A DNA stretch of 63,953 bases, filler included, from an uncultured bacterium (GCA_964637655.1; 12 parts of 12 records of this genome joined end to end with filler, not necessarily neighbours in it), one strand, 5' to 3'; shown: positions 1 to 5,557, counted from the whole stretch's first letter. A program made the numbers and translations. The notes: generated from the letters alone by a model not told the origin.

Positions 1-1
1 C

Positions 2-589
2 TACCGCTGTAATTTCTCCACCAAGACGCCTGACCTCCTCCCGGCGCCTCTGCAGGAGGGGGGGCGCCCCGCGTTTATCTTGCGCTTAGTGCTGGCGGCG
101 ACGCTGTCGTCGGTGTACGGCATCTACAACGGCTTCGAACTGTGCGAGAACACCCCGAAGGTGCCGGGGAAGGAGGAGTACCTCGACTCGGAAAAATACC
201 AGTTCAAGGTCTGGGACTGGGACCGCCCGGGCAATATCAAGGATATCGTGGCGAAGGTCAACGCCATCCGCCGCGCCAACGCAGCGCTGCAGGAATACGA
301 CAACCTGCGCTTTGTACACAACGAGAACAACCAGGTGCTCACGTACTGCAAGATGACCCCGGACAAGAGCAACATCATCCTCGTGGCGGTCAATCTCGAC
401 TACCACAGCGCGCAGACGACCACCATGCACCTGCCGCTGGAAACGTGGGGGATTGAAGGGTGGGAAACCTACCGCGCCGAGGAACTGCTCGCGGGTACGG
501 TGCAGCAGTGGAAAGGCGGGCGGGTCTGGGGCATCACGCTTGCTCCACAGACGAACATCGCGGCCATCTGGCGCATCAGCAGACAGTAA
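2..589 (+). CDS. glgE: alpha-1,4-glucan:maltose-1-phosphate maltosyltransferase GlgE, C-terminal part (5' truncated)
   Basis: Frame open from base 2: TPDLL..LQEGGRPAFILRLVLAATLSSVYGIYNGFELCEN...EEYLDSEKYQ, typical of the GlgE C-terminus. Confidence 0.9.
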   Translation, partial: YRCNFSTKTPDLLPAPLQEGGRPAFILRLVLAATLSSVYGIYNGFELCENTPKVPGKEEYLDSEKYQFKVWDWDRPGNIKDIVAKVNAIRRANAALQEYDNLRFVHNENNQVLTYCKMTPDKSNIILVAVNLDYHSAQTTTMHLPLETWGIEGWETYRAEELLAGTVQQWKGGRVWGITLAPQTNIAAIWRISRQ

Positions 590-597
590 ACGCAAGG

Positions 598-630
598 ACG
601 GGGGGGCGCGGAGGAATCCGTGCCCCCTGT
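598..630. terminator. GC-rich hairpin between convergent genes, likely terminator
   Basis: ACGGGGGGGCGCGGA-GGAA-TCCGTGCCCCCTGT right after the glgE stop. Confidence 0.5.
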
Positions 631-632
631 TG

Positions 633-893
633 CTATTCGAGGAGGTCGGGCAGGTCGGCGTAGTAGGAAAGACCGAAGAGGAGCAGCACGAGGCCGAGGA
701 TGGCGAGCAGTTCCGCGACCGCATGCAGGGCGAATCCGGAGGAGACCTCTTCCTGCTGCCGCCCGCGCTGATGCACGAAGAGCGGGATGAAAAACATCAG
801 GATAAGGCCGAGCGACATGACCAGCAGGCCGGGGACGCCTTCCCAGCTCAGCCAGCCGTCAGCCAGCTGCGAGAAAAAGTCAGGTTCGTCCAT
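633..893 (-). CDS. small two-TM membrane protein
   Basis: ORF MDEPDFFSQLADG... with two hydrophobic segments. Confidence 0.55.
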   Translation of the reverse strand: MDEPDFFSQLADGWLSWEGVPGLLVMSLGLILMFFIPLFVHQRGRQQEEVSSGFALHAVAELLAILGLVLLLFGLSYYADLPDLLE

Positions 894-900
894 AAAAATC

Positions 901-928
901 AAAGGGAACGCCGCTAAGCGTTCCCTTT
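901..928 (-). terminator. intrinsic terminator downstream of the Lys-rich/HTH gene
   Basis: AAAGGGAACGC-CGCTAA-GCGTTCCCTTT perfect 11-bp stem, followed by GATTTTT on the minus strand. Confidence 0.7.
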
Positions 929-941
929 GTACTCCCTCCCA

Positions 942-1172
942 TCACAGCTTGCGCATCCGCGCTTTCAACCCGGCAACGAAGGTCTTGGACTTCCGCAAAC
1001 CGAGCAGGGTGGCCTTGGCAACGACGGTACTGACTGCGAAACCAAGTTTCTTTGCCACCACCTGATTCGTCGCTTTCGGGTACCAGAGGCGAAGAAGTTC
1101 GACCTTTTCCGCCGTCCATTCGATAACCGTCCGTGACGTTTTCGCGCGTGACGCGCGAGGTCGCTTACTTAC
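942..1172 (-). CDS. HTH-like domain (WTAEKVELLRLWYP..VAKKLG..V..KA..LGLRK) in the -1 frame relative to the upstream Lys-rich ORF, with no start codon of its own
   Basis: No ATG/GTG/TTG between the upstream TAA (1169-1171) and the WTAE motif; followed by a terminator. Confidence 0.65.
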   Translation of the reverse strand, partial: VSKRPRASRAKTSRTVIEWTAEKVELLRLWYPKATNQVVAKKLGFAVSTVVAKATLLGLRKSKTFVAGLKARMRKL

Positions 1173-1264
1173 TTTTTTGCCTTTTTTTTTGCGACCTTCT
1201 TGACCGCCTTCTTCACGACCTTCTTCTTTGCGACCTTCTTCGCCGCTTTCTTCTTCGTAGCCAT
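1169..1264 (-). CDS. histone H1-like Lys/Ala/Val-rich peptide MATKKKAAKKVAKKKVVKKAVKKVAKKKAKK (31 aa)
   Basis: ATG at 1264 with GAGAGGGGGT Shine-Dalgarno and a near-consensus promoter upstream; too short for the ORF track. Confidence 0.8.
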   Translation of the reverse strand: MATKKKAAKKVAKKKVVKKAVKKVAKKKAKK

Positions 1265-1314
1265 TGTGTTGTCCACCCCCTCTCAATCGAGAACTTACTG
1301 CTTGCGATTACGCA

Positions 1315-1372
1315 ATACTACCACAATTGTATTATCTTGTCAATATATTTTTTTGTTTTTTGCAAAAATATT
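1315..1372 (-). promoter_or_regulatory. sigma70-type promoter with UP-like A-tract
   Basis: Minus strand TTGACA (1343-1338), 17-nt spacer, TAGTAT (1320-1315), preceded by AAAAAACAAAAAAATATA. Confidence 0.7.
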
Positions 1373-1429
1373 TTCGCGCGGAAAAATCCGGTGCGCAGCA
1401 CGCGCGGCTTGCCTGCCGACGGGAAACGC

Positions 1430-3046
1430 TCATGGTGCGCGCAGCACGCTGATGCCGCCGGCCGTCAGCACGGTCTGCCAGCCGCGCGCGCGCAGCGCGT
1501 GCGTGACGCGATTCCCGTCGGGAAACAGCGCGAAACGGAAACCGTGGTGTGCGAGCACGCGGTCGAAATCGTCGCGCACGAAGTGCAGGGTGAGGTAGTC
1601 ATCCCACACGGGCGCCGGTTCGAAGAGATGGTTGCGCCCGTCGATAAAGACCAGCCGTTGCGGGTACGCGTGCCAGCCGAGCCGCCCGCCGAGCGCGTAG
1701 TAATTGAGCACCGCTTCGCCGTCAGGCACATGGTCCGCCAGCCAGGCGAACGCCGCGTCCTGCGCTGCGTGCCCGAGCGGATGCAACGGCAGCAGCGGTG
1801 ACGGAATCGCGAACGCGGCGACGAGCAACGCGCCGGCCAGCAGCAGCGCGGCGGCAGCACGGTGGCGCGCCACCGGCAGCAGCGACGCCAGCGCGGCAGT
1901 GACGGCAGGCACGCTGACGATGACGAAGAAGAGCAGGTTGCGGCGCGCGGCAAGGAAGGCAACGAGCAACGCGGCGATGGCGAACCGGTCGCTGCGCGGC
2001 AGCGCGCCCAGCCCGGCGAGGGTCAGCGCCACCCACAGCAGCGCCGGCCACCAGGCCGCGTCGGCAAATGCCGGCGGCAGGAAAACGTCGAGGATCTGTG
2101 TTCCCTGCGTCGTCAGCATGCTCGCCAGCGCCCCCCAGATACCGAAGCCGAGCGGATGCAGTGCCGGCGCGACGAGCGCGGCGGCAAGCAGCAGCAGCGG
2201 TGCCCGTCCGGGACGCCGCCTCGCGGTGAGCGCGGCGGCGATCTGCGCCAGCGGGAAGATGAGGGCAAGGAAGAAGGAAAGATGGCAGTTGGCCCAGAGC
2301 GTGACGAGCAGGCCGTAGAGCAGTGTCAGTCGCCAGGGCGGCAGCGGCAGCGACGGCAGCAGCCAGGCCAGCGCGAAGCACGGCACGATGCTGGTGACGG
2401 CGCGCACGGCAAACTCATCGCGCAGCAGCCAGGCAGCGGCAACGCAGGCGACGGCAAGCAACGGGGTATCAGGTACCCGCGACCGGAGGCCGCGGTGGCG
2501 ACGGGCGCGGACCAGCAGGAGAAAGGGGAAGACAAGACAGAACAACGACGTCACCCGCAGCGCCGGCCACCCGCCGATGGCGAACAGGCGATATGCGAAA
2601 AAGGCCGACAGCCACTCCTGCGGCGCCGCGTACGTACCGGGAATGCTGGCGGTGAACAGTTCCTGTGTGATAATGCCGTGTTGCGCCACGGTGCGCCCCG
2701 TATTGAGCCACCACCAGGCGTCGCCGCCGTCGTTGAGATAGCCGTTGACGAGCAGCAGAGAAAGCAGCAGGCCGGCGGCGATGAGCAGGGGCGACCCCGG
2801 TGGTGGCGTCCGGTCAGGCGCGGCCCGGCGTACCGCCCGGACACTGACGGCGACTGACGCCAGCAGCGCGAGGTAGAGCGCAAAGCGGGAGAGGAGACCG
2901 GTGGCGACCAGCAGGGCCAGCGGTACGCTGAGGCGGCGGGGCAGGCGGGGAGCAATCAGGCAGCAGCAGAACAACAGCAGGCCGAGGGGGAGCAGGTCGG
3001 CGACGGAACGGAACTGCGGCGGGTCAGTGAGGAGCGTCAGCAGCAC
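1430..3046 (-). CDS. polytopic membrane protein, GT-C glycosyltransferase-like
   Basis: About 12 TM segments; D.WW.L.TG, QEWLS, LWANCH.SF and FIDGR motifs. Confidence 0.65.
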   Translation of the reverse strand: MLLTLLTDPPQFRSVADLLPLGLLLFCCCLIAPRLPRRLSVPLALLVATGLLSRFALYLALLASVAVSVRAVRRAAPDRTPPPGSPLLIAAGLLLSLLLVNGYLNDGGDAWWWLNTGRTVAQHGIITQELFTASIPGTYAAPQEWLSAFFAYRLFAIGGWPALRVTSLFCLVFPFLLLVRARRHRGLRSRVPDTPLLAVACVAAAWLLRDEFAVRAVTSIVPCFALAWLLPSLPLPPWRLTLLYGLLVTLWANCHLSFFLALIFPLAQIAAALTARRRPGRAPLLLLAAALVAPALHPLGFGIWGALASMLTTQGTQILDVFLPPAFADAAWWPALLWVALTLAGLGALPRSDRFAIAALLVAFLAARRNLLFFVIVSVPAVTAALASLLPVARHRAAAALLLAGALLVAAFAIPSPLLPLHPLGHAAQDAAFAWLADHVPDGEAVLNYYALGGRLGWHAYPQRLVFIDGRNHLFEPAPVWDDYLTLHFVRDDFDRVLAHHGFRFALFPDGNRVTHALRARGWQTVLTAGGISVLRAP

Positions 3047-3063
3047 GCGCGGTCAGGCGCGCG

Positions 3064-4005
3064 TCAGCGCCCGCAGCAGCAGGAGGGCGCGCTCTCGGCG
3101 GTGCTGCCGCTGCAGCAGGAGGCCCCTTCGCGTGCGCGGTCGCCCTCTTCGTCCCAGCATTCGTCCTCGGGGTCGACGGCGAAGATATCCACTTCGAGTT
3201 CCCACTGATAGCGCCGGCGGCAGAGATGCCAGACCGCGAGGAAAATCGCGGCAAAGAACGCGGCCGGCAGGATGACCGAGGTGGGCATGGCCCAGGCCGA
3301 TGGTACGCAGTACGCGTAGATGAGGAAGAGTACGGTGCCGATGACCGCGGTCTTCGCGCTGCGCCAGAGGATGCGCCCGAACCAGTCGTCCTCGCTCACC
3401 ACGGTCAGTTTGGTGTGGATGAGCGCCAGCAGCCACGCCACGGAGAGCGGCAGCCACAACTGGTCGCGGTAGGCGGCAAAGTCGAGTTCAGGCCAGTCGA
3501 GCGAGCGGAAGCGCACCCAGAAAGCGAACAGCACCGCGAGATTGACGAGGATCAGTTCGGCGACATGCCAGAGGCCGTTCTCGACCCGGCGGTTGATCCA
3601 GTCGTGATTCTCGTCGGCGCGTTTGACTACCGCGCGGAATACGCCGAAAACGATGACATTGAGCACGAAGAGGAGGGGGAAAGCCAGCGCCGGAAAGGCC
3701 GCCGCCTCAGTGCGGCGCAGGAAGAAGGCGAAGACCATGGCCAGCGCCATGCCGCCCAGCGATCCTTTGAGCACGCGCAGGAGCAGGCGCAGGTAGCTCT
3801 CCTCGCGCGTGGTACGGTAGAGCCCGGCGCCGAAGAAGGCGGCCAGATGCGCGACGAGCAGCGCGAGGAGCAGCGCGCTCCAGCCGATATAGGCGGCCTC
3901 GGGATAATCGCCGAGAAAGCGCAGCGACAGCGCGTAGTACGAGGTGAACCCGAGGATGATGGCATCGACGAACATCCAGGTGATGACAACGAGCGGATCG
4001 CCCAT
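3064..4005 (-). CDS. membrane protein with two 4-TM units resembling the N-terminal membrane domain of sugar transferases/CapD, plus an acidic Cys-rich tail
   Basis: AAGGAG RBS before ATG 4005; D....A...A...R and GLY pattern; tail DECWDEE..CCSG..CCCGR. Confidence 0.6.
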   Translation of the reverse strand: MGDPLVVITWMFVDAIILGFTSYYALSLRFLGDYPEAAYIGWSALLLALLVAHLAAFFGAGLYRTTREESYLRLLLRVLKGSLGGMALAMVFAFFLRRTEAAAFPALAFPLLFVLNVIVFGVFRAVVKRADENHDWINRRVENGLWHVAELILVNLAVLFAFWVRFRSLDWPELDFAAYRDQLWLPLSVAWLLALIHTKLTVVSEDDWFGRILWRSAKTAVIGTVLFLIYAYCVPSAWAMPTSVILPAAFFAAIFLAVWHLCRRRYQWELEVDIFAVDPEDECWDEEGDRAREGASCCSGSTAESAPSCCCGR

Positions 4006-4088
4006 GGTGCGTCTCCTTGGCACGTAATGCAACAATGTTACTTACTTGTCCGGCTGCCGTCAAGAACGCGTCAGCCGCCGGCGGAAAT

Positions 4089-4448
4089 TCAGGCGTGATT
4101 CCGGTAGCCCTTTTCCCGGAGCAGGGCGAGGCGGCAGGTGTCGCCGGTAAAGCGAAATCCGATAGCGACCTGCAGGGCGCACCGGGGGCAGATGGCGCCG
4201 TGCAGCGCGGTGTCCGTCGCGCCGGCAAGGAACCCCTCCGTTTCGGCGCGGAACTTCTCCGCGAGTGCTGCCGGCAGGCCGGGCAGACGGAAGGTACGGT
4301 CGGCGGCAAACGCCGCGGCGGTGGCGCGCAACGTCGCCTCCGGGAAACGCAGGTCGTAGCCGCAGACGGGACAGTGGTAGCGCAGCGGCCATTGTGTGAC
4401 CGTGCCATCAGGTGCCGAGGCGCAGCGTTCGCCGATGAGTTTCTGCAT
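4089..4448 (-). CDS. small Zn-ribbon-like hypothetical protein
   Basis: CPVCG and CPRC pairs. Confidence 0.5.
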   Translation of the reverse strand: MQKLIGERCASAPDGTVTQWPLRYHCPVCGYDLRFPEATLRATAAAFAADRTFRLPGLPAALAEKFRAETEGFLAGATDTALHGAICPRCALQVAIGFRFTGDTCRLALLREKGYRNHA

Positions 4449-4540
4449 GCACCGGTTATAACGTGTGTTCGTGTTGCGGGTCAACGTGCGGTTGACCGCG
4501 TCTGCCGACTGGTGCTACCATCGTGGGGGAGGCGCTGAGC

Positions 4541-5227
4541 ATGCTGAAGAAACTGCTGCTTGGGGCGGGTATCCTGCTCGCCGCGCTGGTGTTGTTCTGC
4601 GTTGGCTACTGGCTGAATTATTCGCAGGGGGTCATCGCCGGGAGCAGCATCGAGACGCCCGGGGCGACGCGCTGCCTCCTTATCGCCAGCCAGGGAAGCG
4701 ACTACAAGGAGGCGCTGGTGCGGAAACTGGTCGCGCGGCTGCAGGCGGACAGCGCGTCGGTACGACTGGTGGACGTCACGCAGCTGCCGACGGTGAACGA
4801 AGCGGACTATGCTGCCGCCATCCTGATTTGCAGCATCGAGTATTATGCCGCGCAGAAAGACGTGGCGGCGTACATCGCCGCGGCGCAGCGGCCGGAGCGC
4901 ATCGTGCTGCACACCACCTCGGGCCAGGGTGACATGCGCCCGCAGCAGTGCCGCATCGACGCTCTTACCGGCGCTTCACGAAGTGAACTGCTCGACGACC
5001 AGGCGGCAGCCATTCTCGCCCGCCTGCCGCGGCAGACACCAGAAGAGGAGCAGAACATGAACGATGAACGCGATAAGCAGCCATCAGCGGAACAGCCGCG
5101 GCAGGCGGCGCAACCGGGCAGTGCGCAGGAACTCGACGACCGCGAACTGGACAAGGTGACCGGCGGCGTCGTGAATTCCGGGATACTGCAGCCGCCGCAA
5201 CCGCCCGGGTCGTTCGGCCTGCATTGA
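4541..5227 (+). CDS. membrane-anchored flavodoxin-like hypothetical protein, read in frame into a C-terminal double-Gly peptide
   Basis: GGAGG RBS, N-terminal TM helix, LIASQGSDYK...HTTSGQG. Confidence 0.65.
   Translation: MLKKLLLGAGILLAALVLFCVGYWLNYSQGVIAGSSIETPGATRCLLIASQGSDYKEALVRKLVARLQADSASVRLVDVTQLPTVNEADYAAAILICSIEYYAAQKDVAAYIAAAQRPERIVLHTTSGQGDMRPQQCRIDALTGASRSELLDDQAAAILARLPRQTPEEEQNMNDERDKQPSAEQPRQAAQPGSAQELDDRELDKVTGGVVNSGILQPPQPPGSFGLH
5057..5227 (+). CDS. putative 56-aa precursor peptide with double-glycine leader (ELDDRELDKVTGG)
   Basis: Own GAGGAG RBS and ATG; leader matches the EL.D.EL..V.GG pattern. Confidence 0.45.
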   Translation: MNDERDKQPSAEQPRQAAQPGSAQELDDRELDKVTGGVVNSGILQPPQPPGSFGLH

Positions 5228-5355
5228 CCAGCCCCGCCGGTGCCCGGGGTGCGGCGTACCGACGCGGGCCTGTGGCTGACACGGTAGTATACCGCGGTTT
5301 GACAGGATTGCCGTCGGGTGATACATATTTTCGGGGCAACTATTCAGCCAATCAG

Positions 5356-5457
5356 TCCCCTCTCCTTGGGGAGAGGGCGACGCGCAGCGCCGGGTAAGGG
5401 GATACGTCCGGCCGTGTCTGCCCTGCCGCTTCGCGGCTTCCTCTCCCGGCGGGAGAG
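5356..5457. repeat. REP-like palindromic element (CCCTCTCC-N-GGAGAGGG family) at contig end
   Basis: CCCTCTCCTTGGGAGAGGG and CTCTCCCGGCGGGAGAG hairpins. Confidence 0.7.
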
Positions 5458-5557
5458 NNNNNNNNNNNNNNNNNNNNNNNNNNNNNNNNNNNNNNNNNNN
5501 NTTAATTAATTAANNNNNNNNNNNNNNNNNNNNNNNNNNNNNNNNNNNNNNNNNNNN
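5458..5557. other. artificial contig spacer N44-TTAATTAATTAA-N44 (also at 10970-11069, 16460-16559, 21898-21997, 27303-27402, 32678-32777, 38052-38151, 43414-43513, 48752-48851, 54078-54177, 59386-59485)
   Basis: Identical 100-nt linkers with stops in all frames; genes are truncated at the junctions. Confidence 0.99.

Follow-up and report, generated by a model that had tools for sequence, protein, structure and literature searches.

A small bacterial gene in which programmed −1 recoding probably joins a lysine-rich tail to a GcrA-type helix-turn-helix domain

Ribosomes are known to slide on poly-A. In dnaX, two ways of changing frame have been described, namely a −1 ribosomal frameshift at A_AAA_AAG in E. 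coli and transcriptional slippage at a run of nine A residues (A9) in Thermus thermophilus (PMC3711429, available text). Among non-mobile genes, slippage has been proposed or shown at 9-nt A/T runs in Shigella mxiE and S. aureus mapW (PMC1088944, available text), and mxiE is a transcription activator according to the reference list of PMC3711429. Among the 7 conserved 9-A cases in the available text of Baranov et al. 2005 (PMC1088944), 6 are IS elements. The same text regards long A/T runs in GC-rich genomes as suggestive of positive selection. In the available text of Antonov et al. 2013 (PMC3711429), slippage sites are A-runs of more than 7 or T-runs of more than 8, and the same shift direction among orthologues serves as a frameshift criterion.

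The gene reported here has several features in common with these systems. Like dnaX, it contains the slip motifs A_AAA_AAG and A9, is predicted to give two products with a common N-terminus, and carries the same ambiguity between ribosomal and transcriptional shifting (PMC3711429, available text). In contrast to dnaX, where the shifted product is the shorter one, the shifted product here would be longer and domain-bearing; the proteins are unrelated, and no conserved downstream stimulator was found here. Like mxiE and mapW in the available descriptions, it has a short upstream ORF whose fusion with a downstream ORF at a 9-nt homopolymer would give the full-length product, but the protein families and taxa are different, and its upstream ORF is a low-complexity polycation which is perhaps a product of its own. 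The −1 fusion, overlapping ORFs, A-rich motifs and a 9-A pattern conserved in homologues are also found in OrfA-OrfB of the IS3 and IS630 families (PMC1088944, available text). Unlike these, the present gene is not a mobile element: it is single-copy, its chromosomal surroundings are syntenic, and a Pfam search gave no transposase domain.

The two parts of the gene have known counterparts as well. The downstream domain has the same predicted fold as the DNA-binding domain of Caulobacter GcrA (PDB 5yiv/5yiu), but it belongs to a separate family, in which single proteins can also contain arrays of as many as 9 matched stretches (among the best 150 of 806 matches). The upstream peptide has a Lys/Ala-rich, repetitive basic sequence like the H1-like proteins Hc1/Hc2, AlgP and Streptomyces DdbA; because no Pfam family matched the 31-aa peptide, this resemblance is compositional only. 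In DdbA, as far as the available text describes it, a Lys/Ala-rich segment is joined to a regulatory domain, but none of these proteins was found reported there as joined by a frame change. When the open-access literature was searched by words, no description of a gene joining a Lys tail to a GcrA-like helix-turn-helix (HTH) by frame change was found. The proposed expression mechanism is of a known kind, and the gene is outside the dnaX, mxiE and IS OrfAB families.

The gene lies on the minus strand of the window, by which we mean the whole stretch of DNA that was analysed (63,953 bases). The window consists of about 12 contigs of decreasing length with eleven N44-TTAATTAATTAA-N44 linkers, the first at 5458-5557 and then at a spacing of about 5.4 kb, and its source is probably a fragmented MAG. 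Since it was joined from separate contigs, the genomic context of the gene is restricted to contig 1..5457. The gene and its signals are as follows.

1315..1343, minus strand: sigma-70-type promoter TTGACA-17-TAGTAT with TG before the −10, 10/12 matches
1265..1307, minus strand: 5' leader with Shine-Dalgarno site GAGAGGGGGTGG (1284..1273), read from the sequence
1169..1264, minus strand: zero-frame Lys-rich ORF, 31 aa plus TAA, ATG at 1264 and stop at 1171..1169
1182..1190, minus strand: A9 run, candidate slippage or ribosome-sliding site, followed by G1181
1172..1178, minus strand: second in-frame heptamer A_AAA_AAG, abutting the TAA stop, read from the sequence
1142..1158, minus strand: 7-bp GC hairpin of doubtful role, 13 nt past the second heptamer, z −1.2 to −1.4
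942..1172, minus strand: −1-frame ORF, 76 aa, basic linker and GcrA-like helix-turn-helix, stop TGA at 944..942
990..1118, minus strand: core three-helix DNA-binding domain, W19 to K61 of the −1-frame ORF, helices predicted by AlphaFold2
900..929, minus strand: intrinsic terminator, 13-pair stem and T-run, also kept in the orthologue

The layout given by the sequence-only reading held up: the near-consensus promoter, the ribosome binding site, the 31-aa Lys-rich peptide ending GCA AAA AAG TAA, the A9G run just upstream of the slip heptamer, and a 76-aa −1 frame which runs to a terminator and lacks a start before the domain are all present. The first canonical start codon of the −1 frame past the slip site is GTG at residue 38, within the domain. 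The promoter is the sole promoter-like site within 600..1700 (mean of 0.2 in shuffled sequences), and the leader start at about 1307 was inferred from the −10 position. A tblastn search with the domain gave no paralogue in the window. The Rfam search of the region gave nothing relevant; the one match, to P26 and below threshold, is at 826-882 and does not touch the gene. Between GlgE and the gene there is a small hydrophobic ORF, at 633-902 (minus strand, 89 aa) in the window and at 3618-3878 (minus strand, 86 aa) in the orthologous contig, and the window copy had no NCBIfam match.

Relatives were reached through the C-terminus of the neighbouring GlgE: a relative was encoded in 561 of 600 pattern stretches, of which the best 80 were retained. 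The best match was a contig (L001) of an uncultured-bacterium MAG (G001) with 74% identity, and the next was a Candidatus Hydrogenedentes MAG with 65%, which gives a weak hint of the taxonomic affiliation. In L001, the order GlgE, 86-aa membrane protein, frame-slip gene and 547-aa membrane protein is syntenic with the window. Between the two, identity is 74% for the GlgE C-terminus, 66% for the domain and 72% for EF-G, and because EF-G is only 72% identical, the two organisms are well separated; the RpoC fragment of the window had no match in the incomplete G001 genome, and EF-G was used for the distance. The promoter of the orthologue (TTGACA-17-TAGAAT, 11/12 matches) aligns with that of the window, its Shine-Dalgarno site is the same, and its leader is strongly conserved. 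Its Lys-rich ORF has 38 aa, and its domain, also encoded in the −1 frame, is part of an 85-aa open frame that is followed by a terminator. A domain profile found 1 match in G001, so the gene is single-copy there. The JGI metagenome contig L092 is the same as L001 over the gene and its flanks when both are read, and it may share data with L001. The frame break is thus seen in two diverged lineages only, and it is −1 in both. As a separate observation, the promoter and the leader of about 45 nt (1265-1343, minus strand) are nearly as conserved against L001 as the coding sequence, while the intergenic DNA further upstream diverges fast, as seen in a groundwater contig (X7, below). The leader may carry a regulatory element.

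Run lengths across the slip region were checked in other samples, as the sequence-only reading had advised. Logan contigs from four runs of four studies (three DNA libraries and one RNA library), chosen among runs with a share of at least 0.2, were aligned to 700-1700; these are assembled contigs, in which minority run lengths are hidden.

X1, wastewater: covers 862-1417, identical to the window
X2, landfill: covers 700-1214, 11 mismatches and 0 gaps
X7, groundwater: covers 858-1700, 56 mismatches and 18 gap letters
X9, wetland RNA library: covers 936-1292, 4 mismatches and 0 gaps

The contigs of all four runs have the same A9 run and the same frame break. In X7, the sole indel within the gene is a 15-nt in-frame insertion behind 1184, which in our reconstruction would duplicate a Val-Ala-Lys-Lys-Lys unit, and A9-GGC-A6G-TAA is intact. 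The X9 contig covers approximately the predicted transcript span with a consensus run of A9, though it could derive from contaminating DNA in the RNA library. X1 may come from the source sample of the window itself and L092 may share data with L001, so the independent observations are perhaps fewer than they appear. In X9, the summed contig depth over the Lys-rich repeats (1176-1277) reached 65-206. This was rejected as expression of the present gene, because it comes from many short contigs with 4-8 mismatches which run into unlike sequence, and they appear to be Lys-rich (AAGAAGGC-type) genes of other organisms that seem abundant in that library.

These data bear on two alternatives to recoding. 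First, the break might be a sequencing or assembly error, the main alternative named by the sequence-only reading, with a true run of A10 (or A7) and a plain in-frame ORF. The break does sit exactly at homopolymers, where indel errors concentrate; however, identical run lengths were found in contigs from 4/4 runs and in two assemblies of the diverged, syntenic orthologue, so six identical miscalls would be needed. We therefore reject the error as extremely improbable. Second, the run might vary in the DNA itself, with A9 as OFF (short peptide only) and A10 as ON (fusion). DNA polymerase also slips on poly-A tracts (Antonov et al. 2013, PMC3711429, available text), minority alleles are hidden in contigs, and ON cells arising regularly would also maintain selection on the domain. 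Such phase variation nevertheless seems unlikely, since A9 is found in every covering DNA contig (window, X1, X2, X7, L001 and L092), and no in-frame close orthologue was found among predicted proteins, either by word search or among the best 150 of 806 HMMER matches, none of which exceeds 42% identity. To the best of our knowledge, a DNA-binding regulator is also not a typical phase-variable surface function, which speaks against this alternative.

The slip region itself supports the preferred reading of programmed −1 recoding. The A9 run is the only homopolymer of at least 8 in the 63,953-base window, where about 0.03 would be expected from base composition; for comparison, the 3.6 Mb G001 genome has 11 runs of at least 9 A/T, found as 15 overlapping matches. 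Together with G1181, the run forms an in-frame heptamer A_AAA_AAG at 1187..1181 which the sequence-only reading had overlooked, so the window has two tandem A_AAA_AAG heptamers. The Lys/Ala/Val ORF ends GTC GCA AAA AAA AAG GCA AAA AAG TAA in the window and GTC GCT AAA AAA AAA GCG AAA AAG TAA in L001, that is, A9-GGC-A6G in the window against T-A9-GCG-A5G in L001, and in the DNA alignment the spacing from GTCGC to TAA is 19 nt in both. Compared with the window, L001 lacks the first A of the A9 run, where GCA has become GCT, and has an additional A at the other end, where AAG has become AAA. Because both changes are synonymous and compensate each other, the run length stays constant while its codon phase moves: nine residues are kept in X7, L001 and L092, and the run lies one base over in L001 and L092. 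The second heptamer is less constant. The change of GCA to GCG in L001 shortens the second run and turns the A_AAA_AAG by the stop into G_AAA_AAG; because L001 reads G_AAA_AAG TAA, only A_AAG-TAA is conserved there. The earlier view of the heptamer adjoining the stop as the essential site is accordingly unsupported. Slippery heptamers in the zero frame are still found in both genomes, two A_AAA_AAG in the window and A_AAA_AAA within the A9 run in L001.

Codon use in the Lys-rich ORF also changes at this end. In both genomes, its Lys codons are AAG almost throughout and AAA at the slip end: in the window, AAA makes up 3/5 of the last Lys codons against 1/12 of the first (Fisher p 0.053), and in L001 4/5 of the last against 0/15 of the first (Fisher p 0.001). 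Elsewhere in the window (31 ORFs), AAA accounts for 33% of the Lys codons and GCA for 13% of the Ala codons. The position of the shift can be narrowed with the orthologue, in which the −1 frame is interrupted by a TAA bordering the A9 run on its 5' side, so that only shifts within the 17 nt from the run to the stop would be productive. In the window, the −1 frame is open 5'-ward to TTG at 1286, giving a 114-aa ORF. This ORF was rejected as a real gene on three grounds, as the TTG overlaps the Shine-Dalgarno site and is TCG in the orthologue, the same TAA closes the frame in L001, and it is the zero frame in which substitutions of the Lys-rich part are synonymous.

When substitutions between the window and L001 were compared, each part of the gene showed the pattern of its own frame. 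In the domain (W19 to K75, 57 codons), 42 of 171 positions differ, 24 of the 42 at third positions (binomial p 0.0013). By the Nei-Gojobori method, the −1 frame of the domain has dS 0.82, dN 0.185 and omega 0.22, while its other two frames have omega 1.4 and 3.3. This pattern points to purifying selection on the domain in its −1 frame. Of the codons in the Lys-rich ORF, 29 could be aligned without ambiguity; read in the zero frame, they carry 6 synonymous changes and 1 non-synonymous change, which likewise speaks for purifying selection, and the X7 point changes in this ORF (1229, 1232 and 1241) are at third positions and synonymous in the zero frame. Between the window and L001, the Lys-rich part has an indel of 21 nt and the linker has two, of 6 and 9 nt; each length is a multiple of three. 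The substitution pattern in both parts implies that both frames are read, each in its own part.

The selection data weigh directly on a further alternative, in which one A was lost from a gene that was originally in frame, leaving the short peptide as the sole product and the domain in decay. In-frame homologues do exist, and such ORF pairs are usually annotated as pseudogenes (Baranov et al., PMC1088944, available text). However, the break is common to both sides of a dS 0.82 divergence, yet the domain has a dN/dS of 0.22, no stop and only indels of multiples of three, and compensating changes maintain the A9 run. In X7, the 202-nt domain core (947-1148) has no listed change against about 10% in the neighbouring gene, with 17 of the 56 differences not displayed. 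We regard the broken-gene explanation as largely refuted and highly improbable. The X7 core is also peculiar in that its divergence is below what protein-level constraint alone predicts, for which recent recombination or a constraint at the nucleotide level are possible explanations.

The match of the downstream domain to Pfam GcrA (PF07750) is weak (E 0.024; 15.4 bits, below the cut-off of 26.9) and covers profile positions 2-52 of 155; the −1-frame ORF ends 14 residues past the HTH, and the rest of the GcrA profile is absent because the protein ends one helix after it. An AlphaFold2 model on a 16-row alignment has a mean pLDDT of 82, about 90 over the three-helix core, with helices at 21-30, 36-43 and 47-57. 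In the PDB, the model comes closest to 5yiv_A, the DNA-binding domain of Caulobacter GcrA, with 36% identity, an rmsd of 1.7 A across 45 residues and a TM of 0.82 on the target; the Foldseek E-value of this match is only 0.15 because the domain is short. According to the model, the domain is a GcrA-type HTH; lacking the rest of the GcrA profile, it is not a GcrA. Searching 1.84 billion representatives with HMMER gave 806 matches at E<=1e-3 and 92 at <=1e-10. The best 150 of the 806 have identities of at most 42% and are mostly long proteins with 2-9 matched stretches each, and six of these best 150, when compared with Pfam, matched assorted HTH families (Sigma70_r4, GcrA, Myb and HTH_50). In these proteins (P0003-P0152, up to 1069 aa), a unit of about 50 aa with the pattern W-x2-E-x3-L-x3-Y...LGL-K occurs in 2-9 stretches per protein, and no dedicated Pfam family scored clearly. 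This unit may represent an undescribed repeat family of DNA-binding modules.

The combination of a basic tail and this domain was searched for separately. The word-based protein search with the domain gave 0 matches, and scans for the 76-aa domain gave none in 600 pattern stretches of genome contigs and none in 595 of metagenome contigs. Among the best 150 of the 806 HMMER matches, 11 proteins are shorter than 180 aa, none with a histone-like tail before a single domain, and no protein has more than 9 Lys in any 20-aa stretch. When the domain profile (A2) was run against 400 relatives of G001, it matched 9 places in 6 genomes at E<=1e-6, one of them G001 itself. Six of the matched places (L084, L085, L086, L089, L090 and L091, from 3 of the 400 relatives) are short ORFs in which an N-terminal tail rich in K or R precedes a single domain in the same frame, some also with a basic C-terminal tail, and L087 and L088 are longer proteins that lack such a tail. 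The 95-aa ORF of L082 led to the database proteins P0153-P0156, all 4 of which have a basic tail and a single domain. We define this family by a K/R-rich N-terminal tail followed by one W-x2-E-x3-L-x3-Y...LGL-K domain in about 90-150 aa, and the present gene has this architecture only if the −1 shift is made. The sequence-only reading had offered two outcomes for relatives, in-frame fusion or a kept stop, and each applies in part: the orthologue L001 keeps the stop and the frame break, and the distant homologues are in-frame. The RpoC C-terminus of the genomes with in-frame homologues is 46-50% identical to that of the window's organism. Since these homologues are in distant genomes, the architecture is an old one, and the frame break is peculiar to the lineage comprising the window and G001; since their tail and domain are in one frame, the fusion is the expected functional product.

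These homologues also bear on the alternative that two separate products are made with no frame change, the domain being translated by termination-reinitiation or from a non-canonical start near the Lys-rich stop. The stop does overlap the −1 frame, in L001 an ATT overlaps the TAA, and the window has an ATC two codons before W19. However, no candidate start is common to both genomes, neither has a Shine-Dalgarno site before it, and the conserved A9 run and the AAG-to-AAA codon switch would be left unexplained. Moreover, a domain lacking the basic tail would be unusual among the homologues, which have this tail in frame. Reinitiation is therefore judged very unlikely.

RNA structures near the slip region were considered as possible stimulators of recoding. 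The 7-bp GC stem described by the sequence-only reading does exist at 1158..1142, 13 nt after the heptamer, but a stimulatory role for it is not supported, as it is not conserved and its z-score is only −1.2 to −1.4. In X7, this hairpin is changed in the loop only, and L001 has a different 5-bp hairpin downstream (z −0.2 to −0.7); no conserved downstream stimulatory structure was found between the window and L001. Directly upstream of A9 there is a weak hairpin, with −4.7 kcal/mol and z −2.3 in the window and −3.7 kcal/mol and z −0.75 in L001. It has the form GCGGU(C)-loop-(G)GUCGC (window 1191-1207, L001 4192-4209, both minus strand) and ends at the 5' edge of A9. This upstream hairpin is built of repeated Lys-Val-Ala codons and may be incidental.

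Based on these results, we propose that a single gene is probably subject to programmed −1 recoding and gives both a free Lys-rich peptide and a fusion of about 107 aa. The two products suggested by the sequence-only reading are thereby supported through the conserved frame break, the A9 run, the dN/dS of 0.22 and the in-frame homologues. In the proposed scheme, one small, independently transcribed chromosomal gene would give two products. Standard decoding would yield the free 31-aa Lys/Ala/Val-rich polycationic peptide, which ends at the TAA. In a fraction of events, the frame would shift in the 19-nt A-rich region (A9, GGC and A6G) before the stop, and in the resulting product of about 107 aa the Lys-rich segment would become the N-terminal tail of the GcrA-type HTH domain. 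The fusion would then bind DNA, with the tail as an unspecific DNA-binding arm. We infer the occurrence, site and efficiency of the shift. The ORF organisation and the 9-A pattern are conserved in non-identical homologues, which is the criterion of Baranov et al. 2005 (PMC1088944, available text).

Two routes to the fusion are considered. First, RNA polymerase could quite plausibly insert one additional A at the A9 run. This run is conserved in length and not in phase, and no conserved RNA stimulator was found and none is required, all of which would fit transcriptional slippage. Second, and with somewhat less likelihood, the ribosome might slip −1 on A_AAA_AAG, on A_AAA_AAA or on the A_AAG by the stop. 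The presence of heptamers in both genomes and the conservation of A_AAG directly before the stop would fit such a ribosomal shift. Both routes would produce fusions of equal length that differ at one residue (Gly or Ala at position 29). Both changes between A9 and the stop are synonymous in the zero frame and not in the −1 frame, a weak hint that the majority of ribosomes have not yet left the zero frame at this point.

In conclusion, conserved recoding is uncommon in non-mobile bacterial chromosomal genes, and the present gene adds an example in which the basic tail and the folded domain of a small DNA-binding protein are encoded in different frames. The slip tract is upheld by compensating synonymous changes across a deep divergence. 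The finding also matters for annotation, as a domain ORF that has no start is overlooked by gene callers or would be taken for a pseudogene; the ORF was absent from the protein collections searched (word search, and the best 150 of 806 matches among the HMMER representatives). A further and rather speculative thought, which we consider improbable at present but worth stating, is that the slip region is a regulatory ratio device and not a fixed leak, so that the share of frame changes follows the cell state, with charged tRNA-Lys, nucleotide pools or the basic products themselves as possible inputs. If this were true, the device would balance a polylysine-like peptide against a tail-anchored GcrA-type protein and would act as a nucleoid/transcription switch in an uncultured lineage.
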